DNA of 64,000 nt, taken from Bacteroidales bacterium (GTDB taxonomy: Bacteria; Bacteroidota; Bacteroidia; Bacteroidales; UBA932). Location: the NCBI GenBank assembly GCA_024398105.1, contig JAKSJP010000003.1, positions 19,780 through 83,779 on the forward strand, given 5' to 3'. A program made the position numbers and the translations under genes. The notes beneath the pieces were generated by a model that saw only the letters and a program-made list of their open reading frames with translations, did no database searches and had not been told where the DNA came from. The stretch's first letter is position 1. Each line of letters opens with the position of its first letter. Shown here piece after piece: positions 21,149-31,718 of the stretch.

Positions 21149-21371
21149 GTGCCTGCAGGAAAAGGTTAAGATTCATGTATTTCTGCATAATAAATCTTTA
21201 CTCCACACTTTCTGACAAGAAGGAGACATTAGATTTGCCATAGAAATACCCAGGTGCAGAATGAACGTAGCGATACATATAGGAAAGAGGGACAAAGGTC
21301 GGAGAAAATCCTCGAGGTCAAGCAATGGATTCTGGCCCGACTTGCTACAACAATACAACTCAAAATATTCA

Positions 21372-22355
21372 ATGGGCCCCATTCATGTAAGAACAATTCT
21401 GGCCTTTCTCCCGGTTTCCATGGCGATTGCCGGATGCTCAGTTTCCCTGACTCCGGAAGAGACGGTCTGCGAGATGTCCCTGACCAAGGCCCCGGCAAGC
21501 GGGATATCAAGTCTTGACCTATTCTATTATAATGACGATACGGAAAGCCGTCTTGACTCATACCAGAGGTTCACAGATGTCGGAACCCAGGTCCTTGGAG
21601 CATCACGAAACGGGAAAAAGAGCGTGGTAGCCATCACTAATCTGCGTGAAGACAGATACAGCTGGTCCGACATCAGTTCCCTTCCATCCCTTGAGAAAGT
21701 CGTCGCACGTCTTGACGAGGACTCACCTTCCGAGCCTGTAATGAGTGCGTCGGCGCATATAGACGCCGGCAGGCAGTCTTCCTGCAGCATGGTATTCAGG
21801 CCTGTCATGTCCGAAGTCATACTGCGCTCAATACGATGTGACTTCAGCAGCAGGAGCTACCATGATGCCCAGCTCGAGGACATCGAAGTATATCTCACTA
21901 ATGTGTGCACTGCGTGGCCGGTACTCAAGGACACGCTCGCCCACTCCTCGGACTATGTCAACGTAGGACGAGCCGACAGTACCACGATGTCGAAGATGGC
22001 ACATCCTGAATATATCTACAGTCACCCAGGAACCAAGGTAGGATCAGCTACGGTCAGGCCGGACCTGCACTTCTTCTGCTACCCTAATGTCGAGAAGGAA
22101 GAAAGCCTTGGTTCTCCGTTCACCAGACTGGTGATAGAAGGGACTCTCGAAGGCAAGCGATACTACTACCCTGTGAACGTCAACCGCCGTTCCGACGCCA
22201 AAGGAGTGGAAAGGAACTGCGTATATATTCTTGACATGGTACTGACACGACGCGGCACGACGGACCCTGACACAGCCGTAGACACAGAGACCGCGCAGAT
22301 AACGGTGTCCGTCGTGGACTGGAACGACAAAGGAAAGCAATACGTCAGCTATTAG
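21372..22355 (+). CDS. Type V pilus accessory lipoprotein, FimB/Mfa2-like (anchor-type) subunit
   Basis: The ORF runs from 21261, but a lipoprotein signal starts at ATG 21372 (MGPIHVRTILAFLPVSMAIAG|C). About 328 aa, the same size class as Mfa2. Pattern LDLFYYNDD...VVAITNL...MSEVILRSIRCDF resembles the Mfa2/FimB family as I remember it. Confidence 0.5.
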   Translation: MGPIHVRTILAFLPVSMAIAGCSVSLTPEETVCEMSLTKAPASGISSLDLFYYNDDTESRLDSYQRFTDVGTQVLGASRNGKKSVVAITNLREDRYSWSDISSLPSLEKVVARLDEDSPSEPVMSASAHIDAGRQSSCSMVFRPVMSEVILRSIRCDFSSRSYHDAQLEDIEVYLTNVCTAWPVLKDTLAHSSDYVNVGRADSTTMSKMAHPEYIYSHPGTKVGSATVRPDLHFFCYPNVEKEESLGSPFTRLVIEGTLEGKRYYYPVNVNRRSDAKGVERNCVYILDMVLTRRGTTDPDTAVDTETAQITVSVVDWNDKGKQYVSY

Positions 22356-22366
22356 ACAGAAGCGAT

Positions 22367-23386
22367 ATGACCAGAAAAGACATAGACCGATATTGTGGAG
22401 GAATAGTGAAAGGGCTGCTTGTCAGCCTGGCAGCCGCGCTTCTCCTGTCCTGTGAGAAAGCAGGAGAGGCGCAGCTGATCACTGTCGTCTTAGATGCGTC
22501 GGGGGCTATGGAGACCAAGTCTGCAGACCCTGACGAGACTCTGGTATCAGACATCAACCTGTTCATTTTCAGCGAAGATGGATATCTTGAGGATTTCCGA
22601 TACCTGTCAAGAAGGACCGTCGAAAATGCCGGAGGAAGAATAAGTATTCAGGTGCCACTGGTACGAGGAATAAAGGAAAGCATTGTCTGCTGCGCCAATT
22701 TCGGGTATGAGATCAAAGGTATAATGACACATAAGGAGCTGTCAGAGTACCGATTCAATCTCGCGTATCCGGACGAGTTCTCGCGAGGAATACCGATGAC
22801 TGCGGAAGTTGAGCGTATCTTCAGAGTTGACGAGGAGGTCATCACGATTCCACTTGTCAGGATGATGTCAAAGATATCGATAGCGATGGACAGGACCGAG
22901 CTGGACAGCGATGTGAGACTGCTCGTGAAGGGCGTATGGATAGGAAACTGTCCAAGATCCGCCAGCGTCACAGGGCCGAGCTCAGTGCAAGGCAGCAGGG
23001 ATGTTTTCGAGAAAGGCTATGTCAAGACATTCGCGCAGGTGGACCAGATGAACAAGGAAGTCGCACCTGGAATAAGCGGAGAAGCAAATGTATATATGCT
23101 TGAGAACATGATGGGAGACCTTCTGGACGACACGGTCGACGACCATGGCAAGATAATCAAAGGAGCTGTTGCCGGATCCTGCTCTTTCATTGCAGTAGAG
23201 TGCGAATACTATTCCCCTGTCCATCATACAAGGCCGGGAGAATACCTGCTCTACCGTTTCTTTCTTGGTGAAAGCAACAGCAACTTTGACATTGAGAGGA
23301 ACTGCCACTACCACTTTGTAGTCCAACCTTTCGGGGACGGGCTCGGAGACAGCAGCTGGCGCATTGACAAGACGGCATTGGAATAA
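22367..23386 (+). CDS. DUF4906-domain fimbrial-associated lipoprotein
   Basis: 339 aa with lipobox LLLS|C. Fimbrillin-like N-terminal pattern (VSDINLFIFSEDGYL). C-terminal CSFIAVECEYYS...YLLYRFFLGESNSNFDIERNCHYHFVVQP matches the DUF4906 pattern from memory. Confidence 0.55.
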   Translation: MTRKDIDRYCGGIVKGLLVSLAAALLLSCEKAGEAQLITVVLDASGAMETKSADPDETLVSDINLFIFSEDGYLEDFRYLSRRTVENAGGRISIQVPLVRGIKESIVCCANFGYEIKGIMTHKELSEYRFNLAYPDEFSRGIPMTAEVERIFRVDEEVITIPLVRMMSKISIAMDRTELDSDVRLLVKGVWIGNCPRSASVTGPSSVQGSRDVFEKGYVKTFAQVDQMNKEVAPGISGEANVYMLENMMGDLLDDTVDDHGKIIKGAVAGSCSFIAVECEYYSPVHHTRPGEYLLYRFFLGESNSNFDIERNCHYHFVVQPFGDGLGDSSWRIDKTALE

Positions 23387-23397
23387 CAGGAAAGGGT

Positions 23398-24288
23398 ATG
23401 GATGCTGTGTTGGTGTGGACGGATGTCGAGGCGAAGGAATACCGCAGGTCAAGACTCAGATATTTCAAGGACAATCCAGGGGAAAGCGACGACTGGAGAC
23501 AGGACCGTGGCAAAAGCGAGTTCCTGCTTTGTCTCGGGGCGATCCTGAGGAACTGCCCAAGGATCAGGAGGATATCCGTATTGTCAGCCATAAAGATCGG
23601 CTTGCCGGAGGAATTCCTGGACATGAACTTCCCCGACAGGGAGACAGAGGTCAGGATGATGGGCTTCGACGAGCTCTTCGCAGACGGGATGGAAGGCTTC
23701 CTCCCCTGCCTCAGCCCCATAGCGGCCGTCACACAGCTATACAAAGCCAGGTCAATCGATGACAGTTTCTATCTTTTCAATGTCGGTTGTCTACCTGTAA
23801 GGAAAATGGACATCCTTAAGTTCTGGAAAGACGGGGAATCTGTCTGCTACGGGAAATGGGAGCGCAGCGATTCCATCTCAGGAAGAAGGAAAGAACGCAT
23901 CTTCATACCGGGAATGGTGCCTATGCTGATGAGCCGCAGGACTATGGAGGAATGCCTGACAAGCCATCCCGGACTGCTCACATCCAACCTGCGCCATCAC
24001 CTGGACAGCCCGCGTTCGAGGTTCAATCCGCAGGGACAGACAGACATCAGGCTGATTATGGCAAACAGACGGGATTCCGTCAGAGTCGATACAGGCAGAG
24101 GACGGCGGGATCATGGTACCATGGTCCTGAGGCTTGACCCTTGCGACGACCGTACGTTCTTCGAGACAATCGAGAAAGCGGACGGGGCCGAGTTCATCGA
24201 GACCGCCCCGCTGAAGGACTTCGACCTGGGCCAAAGGCGCGCAATCGTCGATTTCCTATGCCACCTGTTACAGATACGCCTGCCTTGA
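23398..24288 (+). CDS. Highly divergent, probably catalytically dead Stealth-like paralogue
   Basis: 296-aa intact ORF with ATG start. Collinear by eye with the adjacent Stealth protein. DAVLVWTDVE aligns with DFVITWVDMN, and FYLFNVGCLPVRKMDILKFWKDG aligns with FVYFNDDMYMIAPTSPERFFKDG at identical spacing. Invariant residues are lost. Several long alternative-frame ORFs overlap, so coding status is less certain. Confidence 0.5.
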   Translation: MDAVLVWTDVEAKEYRRSRLRYFKDNPGESDDWRQDRGKSEFLLCLGAILRNCPRIRRISVLSAIKIGLPEEFLDMNFPDRETEVRMMGFDELFADGMEGFLPCLSPIAAVTQLYKARSIDDSFYLFNVGCLPVRKMDILKFWKDGESVCYGKWERSDSISGRRKERIFIPGMVPMLMSRRTMEECLTSHPGLLTSNLRHHLDSPRSRFNPQGQTDIRLIMANRRDSVRVDTGRGRRDHGTMVLRLDPCDDRTFFETIEKADGAEFIETAPLKDFDLGQRRAIVDFLCHLLQIRLP

Positions 24289-24317
24289 AGTATCGTTAAA
24301 TTTTGTAATTTTGCATT

Positions 24318-25328
24318 ATGGAAATGCAGAATACACCAGAGATTGATTTCGTCATCACATGGGTCGACATGAACGATCCTGCATGGATGGCTGACTTCAG
24401 GAAATTCAAGACCGGGATAGACAACAGCACCAATCAGTATTCAGAGGCCAGGTTCAGAGACTATGGATTCCTACGCTACTGGTTCCGCGCTGTCGAGAAG
24501 AACGCCCCATGGGTAAGGAAGATCCATTTCGTGACTTGCGGGCAGAAGCCTCAGTGGCTGGACACCAAGCATCCCAAGCTCCATCTGGTCGACCACAAGG
24601 ACTATATCCCGAATGAGTTCCTTCCTGTCTTCAATTCATCGCTGATCGAGCTGTATTTCCACAAGATCGAAGGCATTGCGGACAGATTCGTCTATTTCAA
24701 CGACGACATGTACATGATAGCGCCTACCTCTCCCGAGAGATTCTTCAAGGACGGGCTGCCATGTGACATCGCGGCCTTCCGCTTCAATTCCGGAGCCAGC
24801 CTCTGGGCCAAGTGCCTGAAGAACAACATCCGTCTGATCAACAGCAAGTTCGACAAGAAGGAAGTCCTCAGCAGGGACAGGGACAAATGGTTCGCGGAGG
24901 AATACGGCAGCAAGAGGCGTCTCACCCGAGTGCTCCAGCCTTTCAACAGATTCTTCACGCTGAAAGTGCCGCACAATGCCAACGCCTATCTCAAGCAGAC
25001 ATACGAGGAAGTGTGGGCCGAGTTCGGCAAGGAGCTGACAGAAGTGTCTGTGAACAGGTTCCGCAGTGAGAACGACTACACGCAGGAGCTTTTCCGCACA
25101 TGGCAGATCTGCAGGAGCAACTTCACTCCTTACAATGTCTATAAGGACACCAGGATGTTCCCTCTCCTGACCAGGCCGAAGCAGGCCGTGGAAGCGATCA
25201 GGACGCAGAGCCACAAGCTCGTCTGCATAAACGACAACATCCATATCCGCAACTACGAGGCTGTCATGAAGGAGATCGAGGACGCATTCGAGTCGCTGTT
25301 CCCGGAGAAGTCAAGTTTTGAACTATAG
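24318..25328 (+). CDS. Stealth-family protein (putative hexose-1-phosphoryl transferase for polysaccharide)
   Basis: 336 aa. CR1 IDFVITWVDMNDPAW. CR2 FLRYWFRAVEKNAPWVRKIHFVTCGQKPQWL...LPVFNSSLIE...FVYFNDDMYM. CR3 VPHNANAY...NRFRSENDY. CR4 LVCINDN. Confidence 0.8.
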   Translation: MEMQNTPEIDFVITWVDMNDPAWMADFRKFKTGIDNSTNQYSEARFRDYGFLRYWFRAVEKNAPWVRKIHFVTCGQKPQWLDTKHPKLHLVDHKDYIPNEFLPVFNSSLIELYFHKIEGIADRFVYFNDDMYMIAPTSPERFFKDGLPCDIAAFRFNSGASLWAKCLKNNIRLINSKFDKKEVLSRDRDKWFAEEYGSKRRLTRVLQPFNRFFTLKVPHNANAYLKQTYEEVWAEFGKELTEVSVNRFRSENDYTQELFRTWQICRSNFTPYNVYKDTRMFPLLTRPKQAVEAIRTQSHKLVCINDNIHIRNYEAVMKEIEDAFESLFPEKSSFEL

Positions 25329-25343
25329 TTTTTTGGACCATAT

Positions 25344-26015
25344 ATGAACATCAAGAAAGCGATCAGGCAGTGGGGTCTGAAGCATTGGGGCCCAAGAGTC
25401 CGCAAGCAGCAGATGCTCAAGGAGAAAGGAGCCGGTATCATCGGAAGCATAACTGAATTCCTCGAGAAGGAAGGCGTCGACTGTTTCCTTGAGTTCGGCA
25501 CCCTGCTGGGTATGTACAGAGACAAGGATTTCATCAAGTCAGACGACGACATCGATTTCGGTGCATGGCTCAAGGACGCCCCTGTGATCACCAGGACCAT
25601 GCTTGCCCATGGCTATACACTCCGACGTGAGTACCACCTCATCGGGGGCCTTGGTATGGAACAGACCTTCCGCAACAAGGACGGCATGAACATCGATTTC
25701 TTCTATTACGAGCCGGAAGGCGACCATCTGGCAGCGTATGGATTCAGGAAATATCAGCACTACAGACACCACAAGGCATCCTTCTTCAAGGTGTCAAAGT
25801 ATATCTTCAAGACTTTCACCGTAGCAGAAGCGAGCTTCAAGGGGGTCAGGGTAAAGGTCCCTGCAAACACCGAGGAACATATCATGGAGGTATACGGTCC
25901 TGGATACAAGGTCTACGACCCGCATTTCAAGCATGGCGGAAACAAGACCATGTACGAATTCAACGAATCCGGATTCGCCGGAGTGGGATTCAGGAAAGGA
26001 ATGCCTACGAAGTAA
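25344..26015 (+). CDS. LicD-family phosphotransferase (transfers phospho-alcohol from a CDP-activated donor)
   Basis: 223 aa. LicD signature CFLEFGTLLGMYRDKDFIKSDDDIDFG. Confidence 0.7.
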   Translation: MNIKKAIRQWGLKHWGPRVRKQQMLKEKGAGIIGSITEFLEKEGVDCFLEFGTLLGMYRDKDFIKSDDDIDFGAWLKDAPVITRTMLAHGYTLRREYHLIGGLGMEQTFRNKDGMNIDFFYYEPEGDHLAAYGFRKYQHYRHHKASFFKVSKYIFKTFTVAEASFKGVRVKVPANTEEHIMEVYGPGYKVYDPHFKHGGNKTMYEFNESGFAGVGFRKGMPTK

Positions 26016-26025
26016 AGCCTGGTAA

Positions 26026-27051
26026 CTACCTTAGGCTTTCATACCAACGGTAGATCTCGTCTACCATAGGGACAGGGACGCCCAGTTCCGATGCTTTCTC
26101 ACGTATGAAGCGGAGCCCGAACGGAAAATCCTCAGTGAAATAGCGGCTGGCGAGGTCCGGAATCCAGCCCTCCGCAGTCTGCACCATAGGCGAAAGTATG
26201 CCCTTGAAGCCGCCTATCGAGCGTATCTTCCTTGTCAGTGACGGAGCATCGACGCTCTCATAGTACTCCAGGATAGGTTTCAGGAAACCTTCTGTCACAT
26301 CGAGACGGGCCAACACGCTGAACAGCTCGGCATCCAGCCTGATCAGAAGTTCGGAAGCCTCATCGGTCCATTCCTCATAGAACAGGAACTGCCTGTCATA
26401 TACGACGCCGGGATGCCAGTCCTTGAACAGCGTGTATATCCTGGAAGGATGCAATATCGGATTGCTGTTTGTGAAACTTGCCTCGTAATAGTTCTTCAGC
26501 AGATTCACAGGGCTGCCGAACAGTTCCTCCACCAGCGCGCGGAAGGATTCAGGATCCTCGGCATTCTCCACTGCTATATTATGTGACTGCTTGAATCCCA
26601 GAAGGTTGGCCTTGTGGCCATATTCCTTTGTACGGGAGATGAAAGGCACTCTCTGGAAGCCCCACAGAGGGATGTCGCTGCTGAAATATCTATGGGCTGT
26701 GAAGAAGAATCCCGTTGAGCAGAAAACGCTGCCGACGAATGTTCCCGGCCTGACATGAGGGGCTATCGAGGAAAGCATCTCCTCTATAGAGAATCCTGGC
26801 AGACACACAAGTACGATGTCCGCAGTCGGGATGACCTCGGCAGGATCTGAAGACACCTTGGCCAGAGGGCTCTCGAAAGAGGTTCCATCGGGAAGATTCA
26901 GCCCCATGGTATCACCCCAGCTGGACGGTCTTCTGGTAAGGACATTGACCTTGACACCCTCACGATGGGCAAGGAAGCCTGCGCATACATGTCCCAGCGA
27001 ACCTCCGCCGCAGACACATACCGTCACATCAGATCTCTTGAGGGATACCAT
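26026..27051 (-). CDS. NAD(P)-dependent octopine/nopaline (opine) dehydrogenase-family oxidoreductase
   Basis: 341 aa. N-terminal Rossmann VCVCGGGSLGHVCAG. C-terminal SRYFTEDFPFGLRFIREKASELGVPVP, typical of the Octopine_DH domain. Confidence 0.7.
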   Translation of the reverse strand: MVSLKRSDVTVCVCGGGSLGHVCAGFLAHREGVKVNVLTRRPSSWGDTMGLNLPDGTSFESPLAKVSSDPAEVIPTADIVLVCLPGFSIEEMLSSIAPHVRPGTFVGSVFCSTGFFFTAHRYFSSDIPLWGFQRVPFISRTKEYGHKANLLGFKQSHNIAVENAEDPESFRALVEELFGSPVNLLKNYYEASFTNSNPILHPSRIYTLFKDWHPGVVYDRQFLFYEEWTDEASELLIRLDAELFSVLARLDVTEGFLKPILEYYESVDAPSLTRKIRSIGGFKGILSPMVQTAEGWIPDLASRYFTEDFPFGLRFIREKASELGVPVPMVDEIYRWYESLR

Positions 27052-27054
27052 AGT

Positions 27055-28875
27055 CTATCTTATATAACTTGCCATGGAATCGACCAGACGGTCATTGTCC
27101 TCCGCGCTTCTGACTGCGATGCGGATGAAACTGCGTCCATCGAAGCCCTTCTTGGTCGAGCAGTCCTTGATCAGGATGTTGAAATCCTTGAGCAGGCTGG
27201 CAGTCAGTGCCTCCGACGTCATCGGAGCAAGGACCTCACACAGGAAATAGTTAGCCTGAGATGGAATGACCCTGAGGAACGGGACAGTGCTCAGCCTTGA
27301 GCGGAGCCTCTCTCTTTCGGCGATGAACAGCCTGCAGGCCTCGAAGTACTGTTTCTCATACTTGCCGAATATCTGCATATAGAACTCGGCAAAGGAATTG
27401 ATGTTCCATATCGCCACATCTTTCTTCATCGATGCGATCAGTTCCTTGTCTGCCGAAGCCAGCACTCCCAGACGAAGCCCAGGGACGCCATACGACTTGC
27501 TGATCGACTTCATCACGACCATCCTTGGATGAGATTCGAGGACATGGTCATGGAGAAGTGAATTGTTCTCGAAGCCCTCGCTGAAATCGACGAAGCTTTC
27601 GTCGACTACGAGACGGATTCCTCTCTCTGCACACCAGTCCTCCAGGTCAAGCACATCGGACAGCGGGATATAGTTTCCTGACGGATTGTCCGGATTGACG
27701 AGAAGAAGAGTGTCCAGATCCTTGTCTGCAAAGAAAGACTTGAGGTCCTGTGCGGTATAGCTGAAATCCTGATTCTCAGGCACGAACTTTACGACAGAGT
27801 CTGAAGGGAGCCTGTTAGGATACTCCTCGAAAGTCGGATAGGTCAATCCTACCCTGCCTGGAGAAGACATCTCCATCAATGACTTTATAAGCTCCGCCGC
27901 ACCGTTCCCGACACAGACGTGCGAGCTCGAGATGCCGAAGTACTTGCCGGCGAGAAGTGAGTTGACGCCCATTCCCGACGGATAATTGACCAGCACGACA
28001 TCGAAGTTCGCCCTCATCTCGTCCTTCATCCTGGCTGTAGGGAAGAATGGATTGACCAGATAGCAGAAGTCCAGCATGTCAGGGAAACGCCAGTATCCGC
28101 CGTAGCGCTTCTGGTATTTCTGAAGCTTATCCTCATCGGATGCGAAGATGTTCTCAGCTATGTCCAGATCCTGAACGTCATCGATCTCATACCACTTGCA
28201 GTCCCCGATAGGAAGTGCCTTCAGGTCGATGTTGTCGAGAGACGTCAGAATCCTGAGGACCTGCTCATAGTACTCATTGTTGCCCATGACCTTGCTGTAG
28301 GCTTCGAGGAACGGAATATACTCATTGCACGAGAACTCCCGGCTGAACTTATAGATGTTGACAGTCTTGTAATAGTGCTGTACGTCCTCATAGCGGAAGC
28401 CGTTCTTAGGCACGAAGTTGAGGATCTTGTTATCGGAACCGATCCTGACCATGGTACCGTCCATCCAGGTCTGGTACTTCGCCACAAGGGCGATGTTCGG
28501 GCTCGGGTTCTCGACGGCCATCTTCAGCAGTGAGTCTTCTACGATCAGGTCCGACTCCAACAGAAGAGTGTCGTCTTCTTCCAGCTTTTCCTTCGCCAAT
28601 GCAAGCGAATAGATATTGTTGGTCCTGTCATAGACAGGGTTCTCGACATACTCTATCCTGAGGCGGTCGTCATAGCGGTCGCCGATATGGTCCATCAGCT
28701 TGCGGCCTTCGTAGCCTACGACGATCACGACCCTTCTGAGATCCAGGGCCGAAAGCTGGGTGAGCATCCTGTCGATCAAGGTTACTCCATTGACCTCGAT
28801 CATACATTTGGTATTGTTCTTCGTCAGGGCTCCGAGCCTCTTGCCCATACCTGCCGCCAAAATGATAGCCTGCAT
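27055..28875 (-). CDS. Fusion protein: N-terminal LicC-like sugar/alcohol-phosphate nucleotidyltransferase plus C-terminal class I/II PLP-dependent aminotransferase-fold domain (HisC/CobD-like)
   Basis: 606 aa. N-terminus MQAIILAAGMGKRLG...NNIYSL...WYEIDDVQDL. C-terminal domain has NPDNPSGNY, VVDESFVDF and the PLP-lysine motif SISKSYGVPGLRLG. Confidence 0.75.
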   Translation of the reverse strand: MQAIILAAGMGKRLGALTKNNTKCMIEVNGVTLIDRMLTQLSALDLRRVVIVVGYEGRKLMDHIGDRYDDRLRIEYVENPVYDRTNNIYSLALAKEKLEEDDTLLLESDLIVEDSLLKMAVENPSPNIALVAKYQTWMDGTMVRIGSDNKILNFVPKNGFRYEDVQHYYKTVNIYKFSREFSCNEYIPFLEAYSKVMGNNEYYEQVLRILTSLDNIDLKALPIGDCKWYEIDDVQDLDIAENIFASDEDKLQKYQKRYGGYWRFPDMLDFCYLVNPFFPTARMKDEMRANFDVVLVNYPSGMGVNSLLAGKYFGISSSHVCVGNGAAELIKSLMEMSSPGRVGLTYPTFEEYPNRLPSDSVVKFVPENQDFSYTAQDLKSFFADKDLDTLLLVNPDNPSGNYIPLSDVLDLEDWCAERGIRLVVDESFVDFSEGFENNSLLHDHVLESHPRMVVMKSISKSYGVPGLRLGVLASADKELIASMKKDVAIWNINSFAEFYMQIFGKYEKQYFEACRLFIAERERLRSRLSTVPFLRVIPSQANYFLCEVLAPMTSEALTASLLKDFNILIKDCSTKKGFDGRSFIRIAVRSAEDNDRLVDSMASYIR

Positions 28876-28880
28876 GTCTG

Positions 28881-31718
28881 TTAACTGTGCTTAAGATATC
28901 TAGCTGTAAATGTATCGCCGCTTGATGCCATATCCTCAGGAGTACCCTCGAACACGAGTGAGCCACCCTTGTCGCCGGCGTCAGGACCGAGGTCGATCAC
29001 CCAGTCCGCAGCCTTGATGACATCAAGGTTATGCTCGACCACGACAATTGAATGTCCCTTGGCAAGGAGTGCGTCGAATGACCTGAGGAGTTTCTCCACA
29101 TCGTAGAAATGGAGACCCGTGGTAGGCTCGTCGAAGATGAAAAGTATCCTCTTTGCCCTTGAGCTGCTCTCAGCGTCGTTCATGGAGAGGAAGTATGCGA
29201 GCTTCACTCGCTGGCTCTCGCCGCCTGAAAGCGTGCTGCTGCTCTGTCCGAGCTTGATATATGAAAGTCCGACATCCATCAGCGGCTGGAGCTTGCGGGC
29301 GATGGTCTTCGCCTCGTTCTCACTCTGGGCGCTGAAGAAGGCGATGGCCTCCTCTACGCTCATGTTGAGTATGTCGTCAATGTTCTTCTCCTTATATCTC
29401 ACCTCCAGGATGTCCGGCTTGAAACGACGGCCGCCGCAGGCCTCGCAGACCATCCTGACATCTGCCATGAACTGCATGCCTATCTTCACGAAGCCGTCGC
29501 CCTGGCACTCAGAGCAGCGGCCTCCCTCCTGGTTGAAGGAGAAGAACGAAGGAGTATAGCCATTGATCTTGGCATACTGCTGCTCAGCCATGAGCTTACG
29601 GATGTCGTCGTAGACCTTGAGGTAGGTCACGGCATTGGAACGCGAGCTCTTGCCTATAGGGTTCTGGTCCACATATTCCACCTGCGATACCCTGTCGAGA
29701 CTGCCGGAAAGCCCCCTGAACACACCAGGCTGGTCTCCTGTCTCGTTGATTCTTCTGAAAAGCGCCGGATAGAGGATGTCTCCCACCAGCGATGACTTGC
29801 CGCTTCCGCTGACTCCGGTCACCACGGTCAGGACGCCGAGAGGGAACCTCACATCGATATTCTTGAGGTTATGCTCCATGGCACCTTCGACCTTGATCCA
29901 ATAGTTCGGCTTACGTTTTTCCCTGCTGCAGCGAGGGCGTTCTCCGGTGATATACTGCAGAGTGAGCGACCTGTCGACCTCAGCCTTTGAGACTTCCGGC
30001 GTGACAGCACCCTGGAACATCAGCTCGCCGCCGAACACGCCTGCCTTTGGGCCCATGTCGATCAGCATGTCGGCAGAACGGATGATCTCCTCGTCATGTT
30101 CCACGACTATCACGGTATTGCCTATGTCACGCAGCCTCTTGAGGACCGCGATGAGTCTCTCTGTGTCCCTTGGATGGAGACCGATGCTCGGTTCATCAAG
30201 GATATACATCGAACCGACGAGCGAGCTGCCGAGCGCAGTCACGAGATTGACCCTCTGGCTCTCACCGCCCGAAAGCGTGTTGCACGGCCTGTCAAGGGTC
30301 AGGTACGAAAGTCCCACGTCGGCGATGCAGCGCAGGCGCGAGCAGATCTCCTCGATCGCCTTCCCTGCGATACCGCGTTCGTACTCAGTCAGTTCGAGGG
30401 AGCCGAAGAACGCCAGAAGCTCATCCACGTTCATGGTAAGAAGCTCATGTATGTTCTTCCCGCCTACCCTGACATACAGTGCATCCTTGCGAAGGCGGCT
30501 GCCCTTGCAGTCAGTACATGTAGTCTTGCCGGAGAATCGGCTGAGCATATATTTATACTGGATCTTATACTTGTTGGCATCGACCCACTTGAAGAAGCTG
30601 TTCAGGCCGATCAGCGAGGTCTCTTCCCTGCCTGTGTCATGTCCTTCCCAGATCAGTTCCCTCTGTTTCGGGGTAAGCTCGCAATATGGCTTGAAGACAG
30701 GAATGTCATAGATGTCCGCGACTTCCACGAGATGGTCCTTGAACCAGCCCATCTTGTCACCTCGCCAGCATGCTATCGCACCCTCATAGATGCTCTTTGC
30801 CTTGTCTGGCACCACCAGGTCCTCGCTTATTCCCACTATCTTGCCCAGTCCGCCGCATGTCGGACATGCTCCGAGCGGGCTGTTGAAGCTGAACATATAT
30901 TCATCCGGCTGGCGGAATGTCATTCCGTCGGCCTCGAAGCGGTTGCAGAAACGCTGGAGCATGACGTCGCCGGAAGCAGTCTCCCTGCGGACGAACATGG
31001 CACCATGACCAATGCTGAAGCAGTTGTCGATCGAAGAGCGGAGCCTTGTGTCCATGTCGTCCTTGTCCTCCGGTGCGAACGGAAGACGTACCCTGTCGAC
31101 CAGGAGATAGAGCTCGTCCGGAAACTGTCCGCTTTCGGAAAGCTGCATGATGTCCTCGATGCGCACCATCCTGTCGGTCCACATCCTCGAATAACCCTGT
31201 TCCTTGAGGGAAAGCATCAGCTCGACCTTGTCCTTCCTCTCCTTCCAGCCGAGGTCGGCAAGAAGATACGCCGATACCGATTCAGGGTCAAGCACGTACT
31301 CAAGCACATCGTTGACCGTATGGCACTTGACCTCGACTCCGCTGACAGGAGAATACGTCCTGCCTATCCTCGCGAAGAGAAGACGGAGGAAATCGTAGAT
31401 CTCGGTAGTGGTAGCGACTGTCGAGCGAGGATTGCGGATATTGACTTTCTGCTCGATGGCGATTGCCGGAGGAAGGCCTGCGATAAGCTCCACGTCAGGC
31501 TTTGACATCCTGCCGAGGAACTGTCTCGCATATGAGGAAAGACTCTCCGCAAAGCGTCTCTGACCCTCTGCGAAAAGAGTGTCGAAAGCCAGCGACGACT
31601 TTCCGGAACCCGAGATACCGGTTACTACGACCAGCCTGTTCCTTGGAATCTCAAGGCTGACATCCTTGAGGTTATTGGCCCTGGCTTTCCTGATGACAAT
31701 ATTTCCTTCCTGTGGCAT
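28881..31718 (-). CDS. uvrA: Excinuclease ABC subunit A
   Basis: 945 aa. Two ABC modules ([20 protein letters not shown]; LSGGESQR twice) and zinc-finger cysteines ([14 protein letters not shown]...CEACGG). Confidence 0.97.

Follow-up and report, generated by a model that had tools for sequence, protein, structure and literature searches.

Meningococcal CsaB and CsxA are Stealth hexose-1-phosphate transferases, and C. jejuni Cj1436 and Sulfurospirillum SMUL_1544 are CobD-like phospho-amino-acid decarboxylases. In the FR-900098 pathway of Streptomyces rubellomurinus, FrbH cytidylylates and then decarboxylates 2-amino-4-phosphonobutyrate (PMC8976061, PMC6697681). By our own structural comparison this substrate is the C-P isostere of phosphoserine. 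Mf1, a LicD enzyme of Mycoplasma, transfers phosphoethanolamine with CDP-ethanolamine as the donor (PMC11982090). The Treponema denticola protein Tde1415 (PntC-AEPT) is encoded close to LicD-like transferases, in a system directed at the cell surface (PMC6697681). Proteus O-antigens are known to carry N-[(R)-1-carboxyethyl]ethanolamine phosphate as a substituent (PMC9630907).

The locus described here consists of five genes at positions 23398-28875 of a 64-kb stretch of DNA from a gut Bacteroidales bacterium (the window). Three lie on the forward strand (ORF1, 23398-24288, 296 aa; ORF2, 24318-25328, 336 aa; ORF3, 25344-26015, 223 aa) and two on the reverse strand (ORF4, 26026-27051, 341 aa; ORF5, 27055-28875, 606 aa). 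The ORF list confirms the coordinates, the orientations and the convergent layout proposed in a first-pass annotation, and the strands converge between ORF3 and ORF4, whose stop codons are 10 bp apart. An inverted repeat read off the sequence (AAGCCT...AGGCTT, 26014..26037) covers both stops and may be a bidirectional terminator; the terminator scan made no call at this repeat. The module is preceded by two FimA/FimD-like fimbrial lipoprotein genes (21261-22355 and 22367-23386, forward strand), which have Pfam and NCBIfam profile matches to DUF4906, P_gingi_FimA and FimD_tip_adhes. Gaps of 11 bp occur within this pair and between it and ORF1 (intergenic gaps overall are 11–29 bp). Because the pair is on the same strand and this close to ORF1, it is perhaps co-transcribed with ORF1–ORF3. 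Related genomes hold three versions of the island, each flanked by these fimbrial-like genes. Every gene of the five is intact both here and in the orthologous block of a Ca. Cryptobacteroides MAG, and dN/dS between the two blocks is 0.19 for ORF1 and 0.04–0.08 for the other four; purifying selection acts on all five. The profile scan covered the five ORFs and the two fimbrial-like genes, and it bore out the gene families proposed earlier for ORF2–ORF5. Inspection of the ORF list across the 64-kb window recognised no glycosyltransferase (GT), Wzx flippase or Wzy polymerase, as had been claimed.

ORF5 is a fusion of a nucleotidyltransferase (NTase) domain and a PLP-fold domain. The N-terminal domain (aa 1-245; 28141..28875, reverse strand) is a predicted LicC/PntC-type cytidylyltransferase, and the C-terminal domain (aa 250-606; 27055..28128, reverse strand) a predicted CobD-like PLP-dependent phospho-amino-acid decarboxylase. 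Pfam matches are NTP_transf_3/NTP_transferase at residues 1-123 and Aminotran_1_2 at residues 312-600. The best PDB match of the N-terminal domain is LicC (1jyk), and PntC (6pd1) is matched with E = 5e-10. All 83 sequences compared carry its GxGxR motif, Lys23, Glu107, Glu204 and Asp232. Glu107 corresponds to PntC Glu104, an amine contact, and both Glu107 and Glu204 fall at or near amine-contacting positions of PntC and LicC, which is consistent with an amino-alcohol product. The C-terminal domain matches 6oux (E = 1e-42) and CobD (1lc5, E = 1e-31), and the PLP lysine (Lys460), Asn397, Asp425, Arg585 and Arg589 are likewise invariant (83/83). It shares the fold, the PLP lysine, the NPxNPxG motif and the C-terminal arginine with CobD and its relatives. 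Unlike CobD, however, it is fused to an NTase, has no cobamide context and scores below the family cutoff. This last point, a best NCBIfam match to CobD (TIGR01140) of 191 bits, under the equivalog cutoff of 290, counts against the reading preferred below.

ORF3 passes the Pfam LicD cutoff (31.4 bits vs 22.6) and aligns with canonical LicD neighbours (HHalign probability 99.2%, E = 1e-19) through the motif GTLLG...DDDID. Its best NCBIfam match is the Mf1 cholinephosphotransferase and its dN/dS is 0.036. We predict that this short LicD-family protein transfers a phospho-alcohol from a CDP-alcohol donor.

ORF4 matches Octopine_DH with 114 bits, above the Pfam cutoff, and its best PDB match is the octopine dehydrogenase of Pecten (E = 1e-29). 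The His/Arg/Asp triad is kept, as is the arginine that binds the keto-acid carboxylate. Two further arginines, Arg134 and Arg204, are specific to the ORF4 subfamily and are absent in Pecten OcDH and a siderophore-type opine dehydrogenase (OpDH). In profile matches the N-terminal domain is faintly like glycerol-3-phosphate dehydrogenase. ORF4 is predicted to be an NAD(P)H reductase that N-carboxyalkylates an amino-alcohol phosphate. In three otherwise identical contexts, the same slot is occupied by either an opine dehydrogenase or an ornithine-cyclodeaminase/mu-crystallin (OCD) protein; the closest structures to the latter are all alpha-imino-acid reductases, and its carboxylate-binding Lys and Arg are kept. 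Similarly, an OpDH-family gene of a Proteus siderophore cluster sits in the slot of SbnB, an OCD-family protein. We take the role of SbnB in the SbnA/SbnB logic to be N-carboxyalkyl-amine chemistry, so the two families would be interchangeable on such chemistry. They may not be strictly equivalent, since they co-occur in three loci and are joined in one double-domain protein (P0319). ORF4-type enzymes also occur as fusions with the ORF5-type protein, with LicD and with cytidylyltransferases. Some of the more divergent OpDH-LicD pairs lack a nearby NTase-PLP fusion gene, which counts against the preferred reading.

The remaining two genes are related to Stealth proteins. ORF2 carries CR1, CR2, CR3 and CR4, each above its Pfam gathering score, together with the FNDD motif (dN/dS 0.043). 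It is a canonical Stealth protein and a predicted hexose-1-phosphate transferase. ORF1 is both the final gene of the fimbrial-like run and the first gene of the module, and had been described as a dead Stealth paralogue. The profile scan found no Pfam or NCBIfam match for it. However, residues 1-150 are colinear with Stealth CR1-CR2 (BLASTP E = 1e-4; local HMM E ~1e-6; HHalign 56%), with FNDD changed to FNVG and the CR2 'NDD' position holding an invariant N-x-G-C. The top three Foldseek matches in the PDB are GNPTAB catalytic domains, from a poor model (pLDDT 45). A search of 5.8 billion proteins yielded only four relatives, and the homologue in two loci (L086/L087) is likewise directly 3' of a DUF4906 fimbrial gene. 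These three lines agree on a probable Stealth-derived orphan, although the earlier description is weakly supported.

The NTase-PLP fusion has >8000 homologues, and together with LicD and an imine reductase it forms a recurring cassette in Bacteroidales (~62–73% identity) and beyond. LicD is present in 66 of the 80 fusion loci examined, and an opine-DH or OCD reductase in 65 (32 opine-DH only, 30 OCD only, 3 both). Several of the 15 loci without a reductase (e.g. L023, L026, L033, L038) keep the fusion and LicD, so the reductase seems to be an optional tailoring step. NTase-CobD-OpDH in-frame triple fusions occur in seven loci and in P0031 and P0047, and OpDH-LicD fusions are also found. There are in addition cytidylyltransferase-OpDH fusions (TagD-type); these would equally fit a keto-phosphate reductase and cytidylyltransferase logic like that of TarI/TarJ, which goes against the preferred reading. 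Many related LicD loci also have Wzx, GTs or GalE, and 15 of 47 well-flanked loci (about a third) have no GT or flippase at all and lie amid housekeeping genes. The homologues are therefore not confined to complete CPS loci, and many genomes share the synteny of reductase and fusion. The three-gene core is thus a widespread, uncharacterised cassette of gut bacteria, which goes beyond the first-pass annotation.

The preferred reading, which we rate at a little under even odds (about 0.45), is that the module converts phosphoserine to CDP-ethanolamine, followed by reductive N-carboxyalkylation and LicD transfer to a glycan built elsewhere. We infer each substrate and product, the order of the steps and the acceptor. 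The LicC-type domain of ORF5 would cytidylylate a phospho-amino acid in the manner of FrbH, most likely the central metabolite O-phospho-L-serine, and the CobD-like domain would strip the carboxylate to give CDP-ethanolamine; phosphothreonine would instead yield CDP-1-amino-2-propanol. By reductive condensation, ORF4 would join an alpha-keto acid (e.g. pyruvate) to the free amine and so form an N-(1-carboxyalkyl)amino-alcohol phosphate; its substrate could be the phospho compound, the CDP derivative or the glycan-bound form. ORF3 would move the phospho-alcohol from CDP to a sugar hydroxyl, and ORF2 would put hexose-1-phosphate on the same or a neighbouring acceptor, possibly with ORF1 as a non-catalytic Stealth-derived partner. 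The general logic proposed earlier, in which LicD would install a small CDP-activated phospho-compound with a Stealth sugar-1-phosphate transferase alongside, is supported. Among the compounds then listed, CDP-ethanolamine with an opine-type N-carboxyalkyl group fits best with the FrbH-like architecture, the PLP residues and the OCD swap. We know of no Bacteroidales glycan bearing an N-carboxyalkyl amino-alcohol phosphate.

The analogy first favoured was a CDP-2-glycerol pathway homologous to pneumococcal Gtp1/Gtp2/Gtp3 and WchX. Here the reductase would convert dihydroxyacetone to glycerol, the CobD-like domain would be a glycerol 2-phosphotransferase, the NTase would make CDP-2-glycerol and LicD would install glycerol-2-phosphate. 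Wang et al. in 2010 reportedly assigned Gtp1 as the reductase, Gtp3 as the glycerol-2-phosphotransferase and Gtp2 as the cytidylyltransferase. These we presume to match the opine-DH, aminotransferase-fold and NTase families; if so, this pathway would be the sole experimental precedent for the gene set. The faint glycerol-3-phosphate dehydrogenase likeness of ORF4 and the TagD-type fusions point the same way, and gtp1-3 with wchX track glycerol-2-phosphate in serogroups 15 and 23 (PMC1391919). However, a pure kinase would need none of the PLP-site Lys, Asp, Asn and Arg that never vary in the 83 sequences, and FrbH, with the same two-domain architecture, is a cytidylyltransferase/decarboxylase. 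The in situ replacement of the reductase by relatives of alpha-imino-acid reductases, the keto-acid arginine of ORF4 and the acidic amine-contacting positions of the NTase also argue against a polyol. CDP-2-glycerol consequently fits less well than CDP-ethanolamine; it is unlikely, and does not hold as the lead.

It is slightly less probable still that phosphoethanolamine or phospho-aminopropanol is put on the glycan unmodified by the fusion and LicD, with an ancillary reductase that perhaps reductively aminates phosphohydroxypyruvate to the phospho-amino acid or acts on another glycan moiety. The reductase-less loci are compatible with this, as are the alanine dehydrogenases of the OCD family (1omo is among the best matches) and the formyltransferase-like and N-acetyltransferase genes that adjoin the fusion in other lineages. 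However, the triple and OpDH-LicD fusions bind the reductase to the late steps, SerC already supplies cells with phosphoserine, and to our knowledge the opine-DH family does not use ammonia. A soluble or lipid-linked product, such as a natural product or lipid head group, seems improbable. Distant fusion homologues (~32% identity) in Bacillus/Erwinia plasmid natural-product clusters do lie beside ATP-grasp, ACP, CDP-alcohol phosphatidyltransferase and MFS genes, but natural-product tailoring genes are absent here, a Stealth sugar-phosphate transferase is present, and LicD is the usual partner, often with Wzx, GTs or GalE. Least probable is that the block is what remains of a larger, decaying polysaccharide locus and is now without function. 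The corresponding island of sister genomes holds GT4 and GT2 genes that are missing from the window, and ORF1 is without the Stealth catalytic motif; against this, two genomes carry all five genes intact under dN/dS of 0.04–0.19, and the recurrence of compact cassettes without GT or flippase argues that the block is not a remnant.

Compared with described systems, ORF2 shares all four conserved regions with the Stealth enzymes GNPTAB, CsaB and CsxA, and ORF1 keeps a Stealth-like N-terminal half, as in GNPTAB-type enzymes. Unlike those systems, the locus has no capsule export or polymerase context and pairs a catalytic with a motif-less paralogue. ORF4 has the Octopine_DH fold and catalytic triad of the opine dehydrogenases (Pecten octopine, tauropine, alanopine), one of which, tauropine dehydrogenase, acts on taurine, a structural analogue of phosphoethanolamine; its subfamily differs in the two extra arginines and in being dedicated to LicD/cytidylyltransferase contexts. 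As in the lic system (LicC and LicD) and Mf1, a LicC-type enzyme would make a CDP-amino-alcohol and a LicD-family enzyme transfer the phospho-alcohol to sugar, but the LicA kinase and LicB transporter are absent, decarboxylation of a phospho-amino acid is the predicted source of the phospho-alcohol, and the set includes an additional, dedicated imine reductase. Gtp1/2/3 and WchX, whose protein families may be the same, also combine a reductase, a cytidylyltransferase, a third enzyme and a phosphotransferase that place a small phospho-alcohol on polysaccharide (PMC1391919), but glycerol-2-phosphate has no amine, whereas the present cassette has PLP residues that never vary and a reductase that swaps with imine reductases. 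Tde1415, which serves CMP-aminoethylphosphonate synthesis, likewise fuses a LicC-like NTase to a PLP enzyme, but a class V transaminase dependent on PEP mutase, whereas that of ORF5 is class I/II and CobD-like. A PEP-mutase motif was absent from the window and present in 1 of 81 loci, and the CMP-aminoethylphosphonate-like route listed earlier is excluded. The substituent of Proteus mirabilis O-polysaccharide is of the exact kind predicted here, as a chemical precedent only (PMC9630907); the literature searched describes no biosynthetic genes for it, and the Proteus OpDH homologue lies in the siderophore cluster. FrbH, the sole characterised protein with the NTase-PLP two-domain architecture found in that literature, likewise joins an N-terminal PF12804-type cytidylyltransferase to a C-terminal PLP decarboxylase, a likeness of architecture; in both domains, ORF5 and its natural-product-cluster homologues have conserved catalytic residues. 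FrbH differs in its phosphonate substrate, its antibiotic pathway and the later removal of CMP, whereas the present locus has no PEP mutase, a LicD partner and a CDP-alcohol as the predicted donor for glycan decoration.

The block comprises two sets of genes, all intact, that converge on stop codons 10 bp apart, and the positions and orientation assigned to the five reading frames in the first-pass annotation are exact. ORF1 (23398–24288), ORF2 (24318–25328) and ORF3 (25344–26015) lie on the plus strand, and ORF4 (26026–27051) and ORF5 (27055–28875) on the minus strand. Profile searches uphold the family calls made from the sequence for four of the five (ORF2 to ORF5). Two fim-like genes, ORF1, ORF2 and ORF3 follow one another with gaps of just 11–29 bp, and on the minus strand only 5 bp separate uvrA from the fusion gene ORF5 (28875–28881) and 3 bp the fusion gene from the reductase gene ORF4 (27051–27055). 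Given these small gaps, co-transcription is plausible within each set, and judged by spacing the two biosynthetic genes may share a transcript with the DNA-repair gene uvrA. An inverted repeat (AAGCCT, 12 nucleotides, AGGCTT) at 26014–26037 spans the stops of ORF3 and ORF4, and may be a terminator common to both. Scans for sigma-70 promoters and for terminators give counts equal to those of shuffled sequences; Bacteroidales promoters differ from sigma-70.

By appearance, the neighbours of the block are an nqr operon, two FimA/FimD-like lipoprotein genes, uvrA, a GH9 gene and a SusC/D PUL, the uvrA and GH9 labels being those of Pfam for the orthologous genes in two compared loci (L001 and L086). 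Inspection of the ORF list for the 64-kb window, with profile scans of just seven ORFs (the five of the block and two fimbrial-like), reveals no recognisable GT, flippase or polymerase. The first-pass view that this is no canonical Bacteroidales CPS locus holds on the same inspection, as UpxY/UpxZ, an initiating transferase, GTs and Wzx/Wzy all go unrecognised. Comparison with the orthologous block of a Candidatus Cryptobacteroides MAG (L002) indicates purifying selection on all five genes, with dN/dS of 0.19 for ORF1 and 0.04–0.08 for the other four; the two copies of ORF5 are 95% identical.

ORF5 joins an NTP_transf_3/NTP_transferase domain to an Aminotran_1_2 domain. Among solved structures, residues 1–245 are related to LicC and to the N-terminal domain of the PntC fusion Tde1415, and residues 250–606 to CobD-type decarboxylases (6oux, E = 1e-42; 1lc5). 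The closest named relative is CobD, L-threonine-phosphate decarboxylase (TIGR01140), and the score of 191.4 bits against an equivalog cutoff of 290.55 marks the PLP domain as a relative of CobD rather than an orthologue. Its closest structural relative, 6oux, may be a Campylobacter enzyme, to judge from its composition, and no mention of it was found in the literature searched. An alignment of 83 sequences, which took in distant homologues from plasmids of the Bacillus cereus group and Erwinia and from Fusobacterium vincentii, shows invariant residues in both domains: GxGxR, Lys23, Glu107, Asp109 and Asp232 in the nucleotidyltransferase, and Lys460 (the PLP lysine), Asn397, Asp425, Arg585 and Arg589 in the PLP domain. 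Glu107 corresponds in alignment to PntC Glu104, and an invariant YYE204 motif falls beside PntC Glu196. In PntC these two glutamates contact the primary amine of aminoethylphosphonate, and their LicC counterparts are Asp105 and Asp192 (PMC6697681).

One characterised enzyme with this two-domain architecture appears in the searched literature. FrbH has a cytidylyltransferase at the N-terminus and a decarboxylase at the C-terminus; 2-amino-4-phosphonobutyrate is cytidylylated and the CMP conjugate is then decarboxylated (PMC8976061, PMC6697681, PMC9088020). Our own structural comparison identifies 2-amino-4-phosphonobutyrate as the C-P isostere of O-phosphoserine. ORF5 has the corresponding make-up, a PF12804-type nucleotidyltransferase followed by a PLP decarboxylase-type domain, and the likeness, drawn to FrbH as described in print (PMC8976061), lies in the domain order and in the catalytic lysine of each domain (Lys23 and Lys460). 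From these residues and this precedent we infer that ORF5 converts a phospho-amino acid to a CDP-amino-alcohol. Phosphoserine would be the most economical substrate; it would be cytidylylated and then decarboxylated to give CDP-ethanolamine. No threonine kinase is conserved near the cassette in the loci compared. A CMP-aminoethylphosphonate-like route, offered as an alternative at first pass, fails on several points. The C-terminal domain is Aminotran_1_2 and CobD-like, the PntC-type structure 6pd1 is matched by the N-terminal domain only, and a class V AEP transaminase is absent, as is the PEP-mutase motif (EDKxxxxxNS) from the window and from all but one of 81 loci. In the one exception (L047) the signature EDKTGLKKNS lies ~13.7 kb into the locus, possibly a phosphonate hybrid of the cassette.

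ORF4 belongs to the Octopine_DH family (114 bits). It shares its His/Arg/Asp triad with Pecten octopine dehydrogenase: His201, Arg303 and Asp308 align with His212, Arg324 and Asp329, and the arginine that binds the keto-acid carboxylate is among them. Two further arginines flank the catalytic histidine in the LicD-linked opine-DH subfamily (Arg134 in 52 of 53 sequences, Arg204 in 51 of 53). Both are missing from the Pecten enzyme and from a siderophore-type enzyme, and they would suit an amine that bears a phosphate. Elsewhere the same position is taken by a reductase of the OCD (ornithine-cyclodeaminase/mu-crystallin) type, closest to pyrroline-2-carboxylate reductase, archaeal alanine dehydrogenase, ketimine reductase, SbnB and iminosuccinate reductase, which retains the carboxylate-binding lysine and arginine of its family. 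The two types replace one another in three otherwise identical contexts (L007 and L010 against L009 and L025; L050 and L061 against L057 and L066; L080 against L081 and L074), an in-situ non-orthologous displacement. What the families have in common is the reduction of an imine formed from an amine and an alpha-keto acid.

An independent precedent for this interchange comes from a siderophore-type cluster on a Proteus mirabilis chromosome, filed as a plasmid (L085:502–10485), with IucA/C, a TonB receptor, a PLP decarboxylase, an SbnA-like PALP enzyme and an MFS transporter. Here an Octopine_DH-family gene stands beside the SbnA-like enzyme, in the slot that SbnB, an OCD-family enzyme, fills in the staphyloferrin-type clusters of staphylococci. 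Rhizobial plasmids likewise pair an opine-DH gene with a cysteine-synthase-family gene. The Proteus homologue was considered as a biosynthetic link to Cet-EtnP and rejected, given its place in an IucA/SbnA-like siderophore cluster; the paper on the Proteus O-antigen cluster names no relevant Cet-EtnP genes. Taken together, the triad, the exchange with OCD enzymes, the shared imine chemistry and the Proteus precedent lead us to infer that ORF4 reductively N-carboxyalkylates an amino-alcohol phosphate. An alpha-keto acid would be the co-substrate and NAD(P)H the reductant, and the amine could be free, CDP-linked or glycan-bound at that stage.

Gene fusions are the basis for coupling the reductase functionally to the cassette. 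In-frame triple fusions of the NTase-CobD-OpDH type are found in seven loci and in two further proteins (P0031 and P0047), and OpDH-LicD, LicD-OpDH and TagD/ECT-type cytidylyltransferase-OpDH fusions occur elsewhere. Fifteen of 80 loci have no reductase, and several of these (e.g. L023, L026, L033 and L038) still have the fusion and LicD, a pattern that fits an optional tailoring step. In two loci (L046 and L076) opine-DH and OCD genes both adjoin the fusion, and a single 636-residue protein (P0319, L094:943–2853) contains Octopine_DH and OCD_Mu_crystall domains, so the two reductases may sometimes act jointly rather than as alternatives.

The last component, ORF3, exceeds the Pfam LicD (PF04991) cutoff of 22.6 bits with 31.4 bits, the match being confined to the N-terminus. 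It contains GTLLG...SDDDID, an N-terminal poly-Asp motif of DxD type, and its HHalign comparison with the canonical LicD genes beside homologous loci gives a probability of 99.2% over residues 30–194. LicD-family enzymes use CDP-alcohols as donors, and Mf1 moves phosphoethanolamine from CDP-ethanolamine in vitro (PMC11982090). ORF3 would accordingly place a phospho-alcohol from a CDP-alcohol donor on a surface glycan.

All of the cassette chemistry is predicted, and its most far-reaching reading carries a probability of about 0.35. On that reading an opine-type zwitterion, N-(1-carboxyalkyl)ethanolamine phosphate, would be added to surface glycans by gut Bacteroidales and apparently also by some Fusobacteria, some Verrucomicrobia and even giant viruses. 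One protein, acting as a CDP-ethanolamine synthase independent of the Kennedy pathway, would cytidylylate phosphoserine and then decarboxylate it; a dedicated opine synthase would follow, and LicD would install the product. The first-pass annotation had instead leaned towards a CDP-2-glycerol pathway like that of pneumococcal Gtp1-3/WchX. Cytidylyltransferase-OpDH fusions, and OpDH-LicD pairs with no fusion nearby, are also compatible with a keto-phosphate reductase logic. However, the invariant residues for PLP chemistry, the FrbH precedent, the exchange with imine reductases and the acidic amine-contact residues of the nucleotidyltransferase are hard to reconcile with a kinase-made neutral polyol, and on these grounds we consider glycerol an unlikely product. 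Streptococcal entries are absent from the relatives of ORF4 in an exhaustive representative search, a low-GC profile search and name look-ups, and the pneumococcal literature searched gives gene names only, with no protein families for Gtp.

The amino-alcohol cassette that we propose is very common. More than 8000 homologues of ORF5, typically 62–73% identical, are distributed among Prevotellaceae, Muribaculaceae, Bacteroidaceae, Alloprevotella and Paludibacteraceae, and a few Verrucomicrobia MAGs. Partners were counted by calling and clustering ORFs in 80 reference-genome loci and annotating the recurrent clusters. LicD is present in 66 of these, at times fused to an IspD-type cytidylyltransferase, a reductase in 65 (opine-DH only in 32, OCD only in 30, both in three) and a Wzx-type flippase in 31. 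The cassette often lies outside polysaccharide loci, as in RecQ-RecJ / fusion-reductase-LicD / alkaline phosphatase-HflX or FtsX...QueA / IspD-LicD-fusion. Flanks of 5 kb or more on each side are available for 47 loci; within 7 kb, a flippase occurs in 20 of these, GTs alone in 12, and neither is recognisable in 15. Two outcomes named at first pass as counting against a functional module, confinement to complete CPS loci and a lack of synteny between reductase and fusion, are therefore not what is seen; the two genes are adjacent in many loci and fused in frame in seven. A truncated or decaying remnant is excluded by the selection on the block and the recurrence of stand-alone cassettes.

Other settings are more elaborate. 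A small conserved locus by gmk and yicC in Prevotellaceae and Muribaculaceae (L003–L006, L011, L016–L019, L022, L029, L036, L042 and L064) runs GtrB-like GT2, HAD or small ORF, Wzx-type flippase, GalE, LicD, fusion or triple fusion, and OCD. This layout resembles a polyprenyl-phosphate-sugar decoration pathway; the 7 kb examined reveals no final transferase. In three Verrucomicrobia, Opitutales and Ca. Spyradenecus MAGs (L046, L051 and L063) the fusion is 66–67% identical to that of Bacteroidales and has the same partners, which points to horizontal movement of the cassette between gut bacteria, or else to a binning error. The Fusobacterium vincentii homologue (49%) occurs with LicD in an O-antigen-like cluster. 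Two contigs carry a convergent opine-DH/LicD gene pair (L092:6001–7586 and L093:3762–5347) together with giant-virus-like genes (Evr1/Alr sulfhydryl oxidase, RNA polymerase Rpb5, ankyrin repeats, Endonuclease_7, FtsJ and NUDIX), and the pairing may thus extend to nucleocytoplasmic large DNA viruses.

Homologues of ORF5 at ~32% identity are found in natural-product-like clusters on plasmids of the Bacillus cereus group and Erwinia. On the Bacillus cereus plasmid NZ_CP053657.2 (L083:3443–12741) a 33% identical NTase-decarboxylase fusion is accompanied by an AAC(3)-family N-acetyltransferase, an ACP, an aminoacyl-tRNA-ligase-like gene and an ATP-grasp gene, with a plasmid-borne DXR gene lying 2.4 kb upstream. 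The cluster appears to be of the FR-900098/fosmidomycin type and to carry a resistance copy of the target enzyme. On the Erwinia rhapontici plasmid pERA53 (L084:5716–15448) a CDP-alcohol phosphatidyltransferase-family gene comes immediately after the fusion, in a cluster with two HAD phosphatases, an SDR, an ATP-grasp gene and an MFS transporter. By gene content, this is an uncharacterised small-molecule cluster with a predicted CDP-alcohol intermediate.

Within the family to which the window organism belongs, a variable island of glycan-modification genes lies between the fimbrial genes and uvrA/nqr and exists in three versions. In the window and in L002, ORF1-Stealth-LicD converges on OpDH-fusion; in L050, L057, L061 and L066 the order is GT4-LicD-Stealth-GT2-fusion-OpDH/OCD; and in L086, ORF1, a TagD-type cytidylyltransferase and a TupA-like ATP-grasp gene converge on two Stealth genes. 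Stealth is common to all three, and is found in just six of the 80 loci, all from relatives of the window organism. A DUF4906 fimbrial gene always immediately precedes ORF1, and in L086:333–4377 and L087:1354–3257 the ORF1 homologue (50% identity) overlaps its end. The site looks like a hotspot for swapping glycan-modification modules, and its adjacency to fimbrial genes prompts the speculation that the acceptor is a glycan of a fimbrial or other O-glycoprotein.

ORF2 is a Stealth protein with CR1–CR4 all above the Pfam gathering score (145, 41, 27 and 39 bits). ORF1 has been called a dead Stealth paralogue, a description that stands in part. It has no Pfam match even at E ≤ 0.05, belongs to no database family and has four relatives among 5.8 billion proteins, a tiny, lineage-restricted family. 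Its residues 1–150 align colinearly with Stealth CR1–CR2, the remote similarity being confined to that stretch, and the NDD (FNDD) of CR2 is replaced by an invariant N-x-G-C. The AlphaFold model is poor (pLDDT 45) and supports no claim beyond the identity of its top matches, the best three of 350,542 PDB chains in Foldseek being catalytic domains of GlcNAc-1-phosphotransferase (GNPTAB). The alignment, the lost FNDD and these matches make it reasonable to regard ORF1 as probably Stealth-derived and lacking the catalytic-region motif, but it is a non-canonical member, and "dead" is an interpretation.

Phosphocholine, phosphoethanolamine and zwitterionic motifs on surface glycans shape recognition by host immunity, phages and antimicrobial peptides. 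To our knowledge, the genetics of small charged glycan substituents are largely undescribed in Bacteroidales, the dominant gut order. The analysis turns an odd five-gene block into a defined, very common cassette with concrete predicted chemistry, which usefully marks glycan loci for annotation whether the product is an amino-alcohol or glycerol; were it glycerol-2-phosphate, a supposedly rare modification would be widespread in gut bacteria. If the amino-alcohol reading is true, bacteria would have a new way of making CDP-ethanolamine, starting from a central metabolite, and both opine dehydrogenases and imine reductases of the mu-crystallin type would gain a new biological role, the former being assigned to glycan decoration for the first time. 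The abundance of the cassette in gut Bacteroidales, and the combination of LicD decoration with a dedicated, interchangeable opine-type reductase, are undescribed in the literature searched; CDP-alcohol/LicD decoration and FrbH-type fusions are already known. The predicted substituent is the same N-(1-carboxyethyl)ethanolamine phosphate that occurs in Proteus mirabilis O-polysaccharides (PMC9630907), and the cassette would be the first gene set for this Proteus substituent, chemically known for decades.
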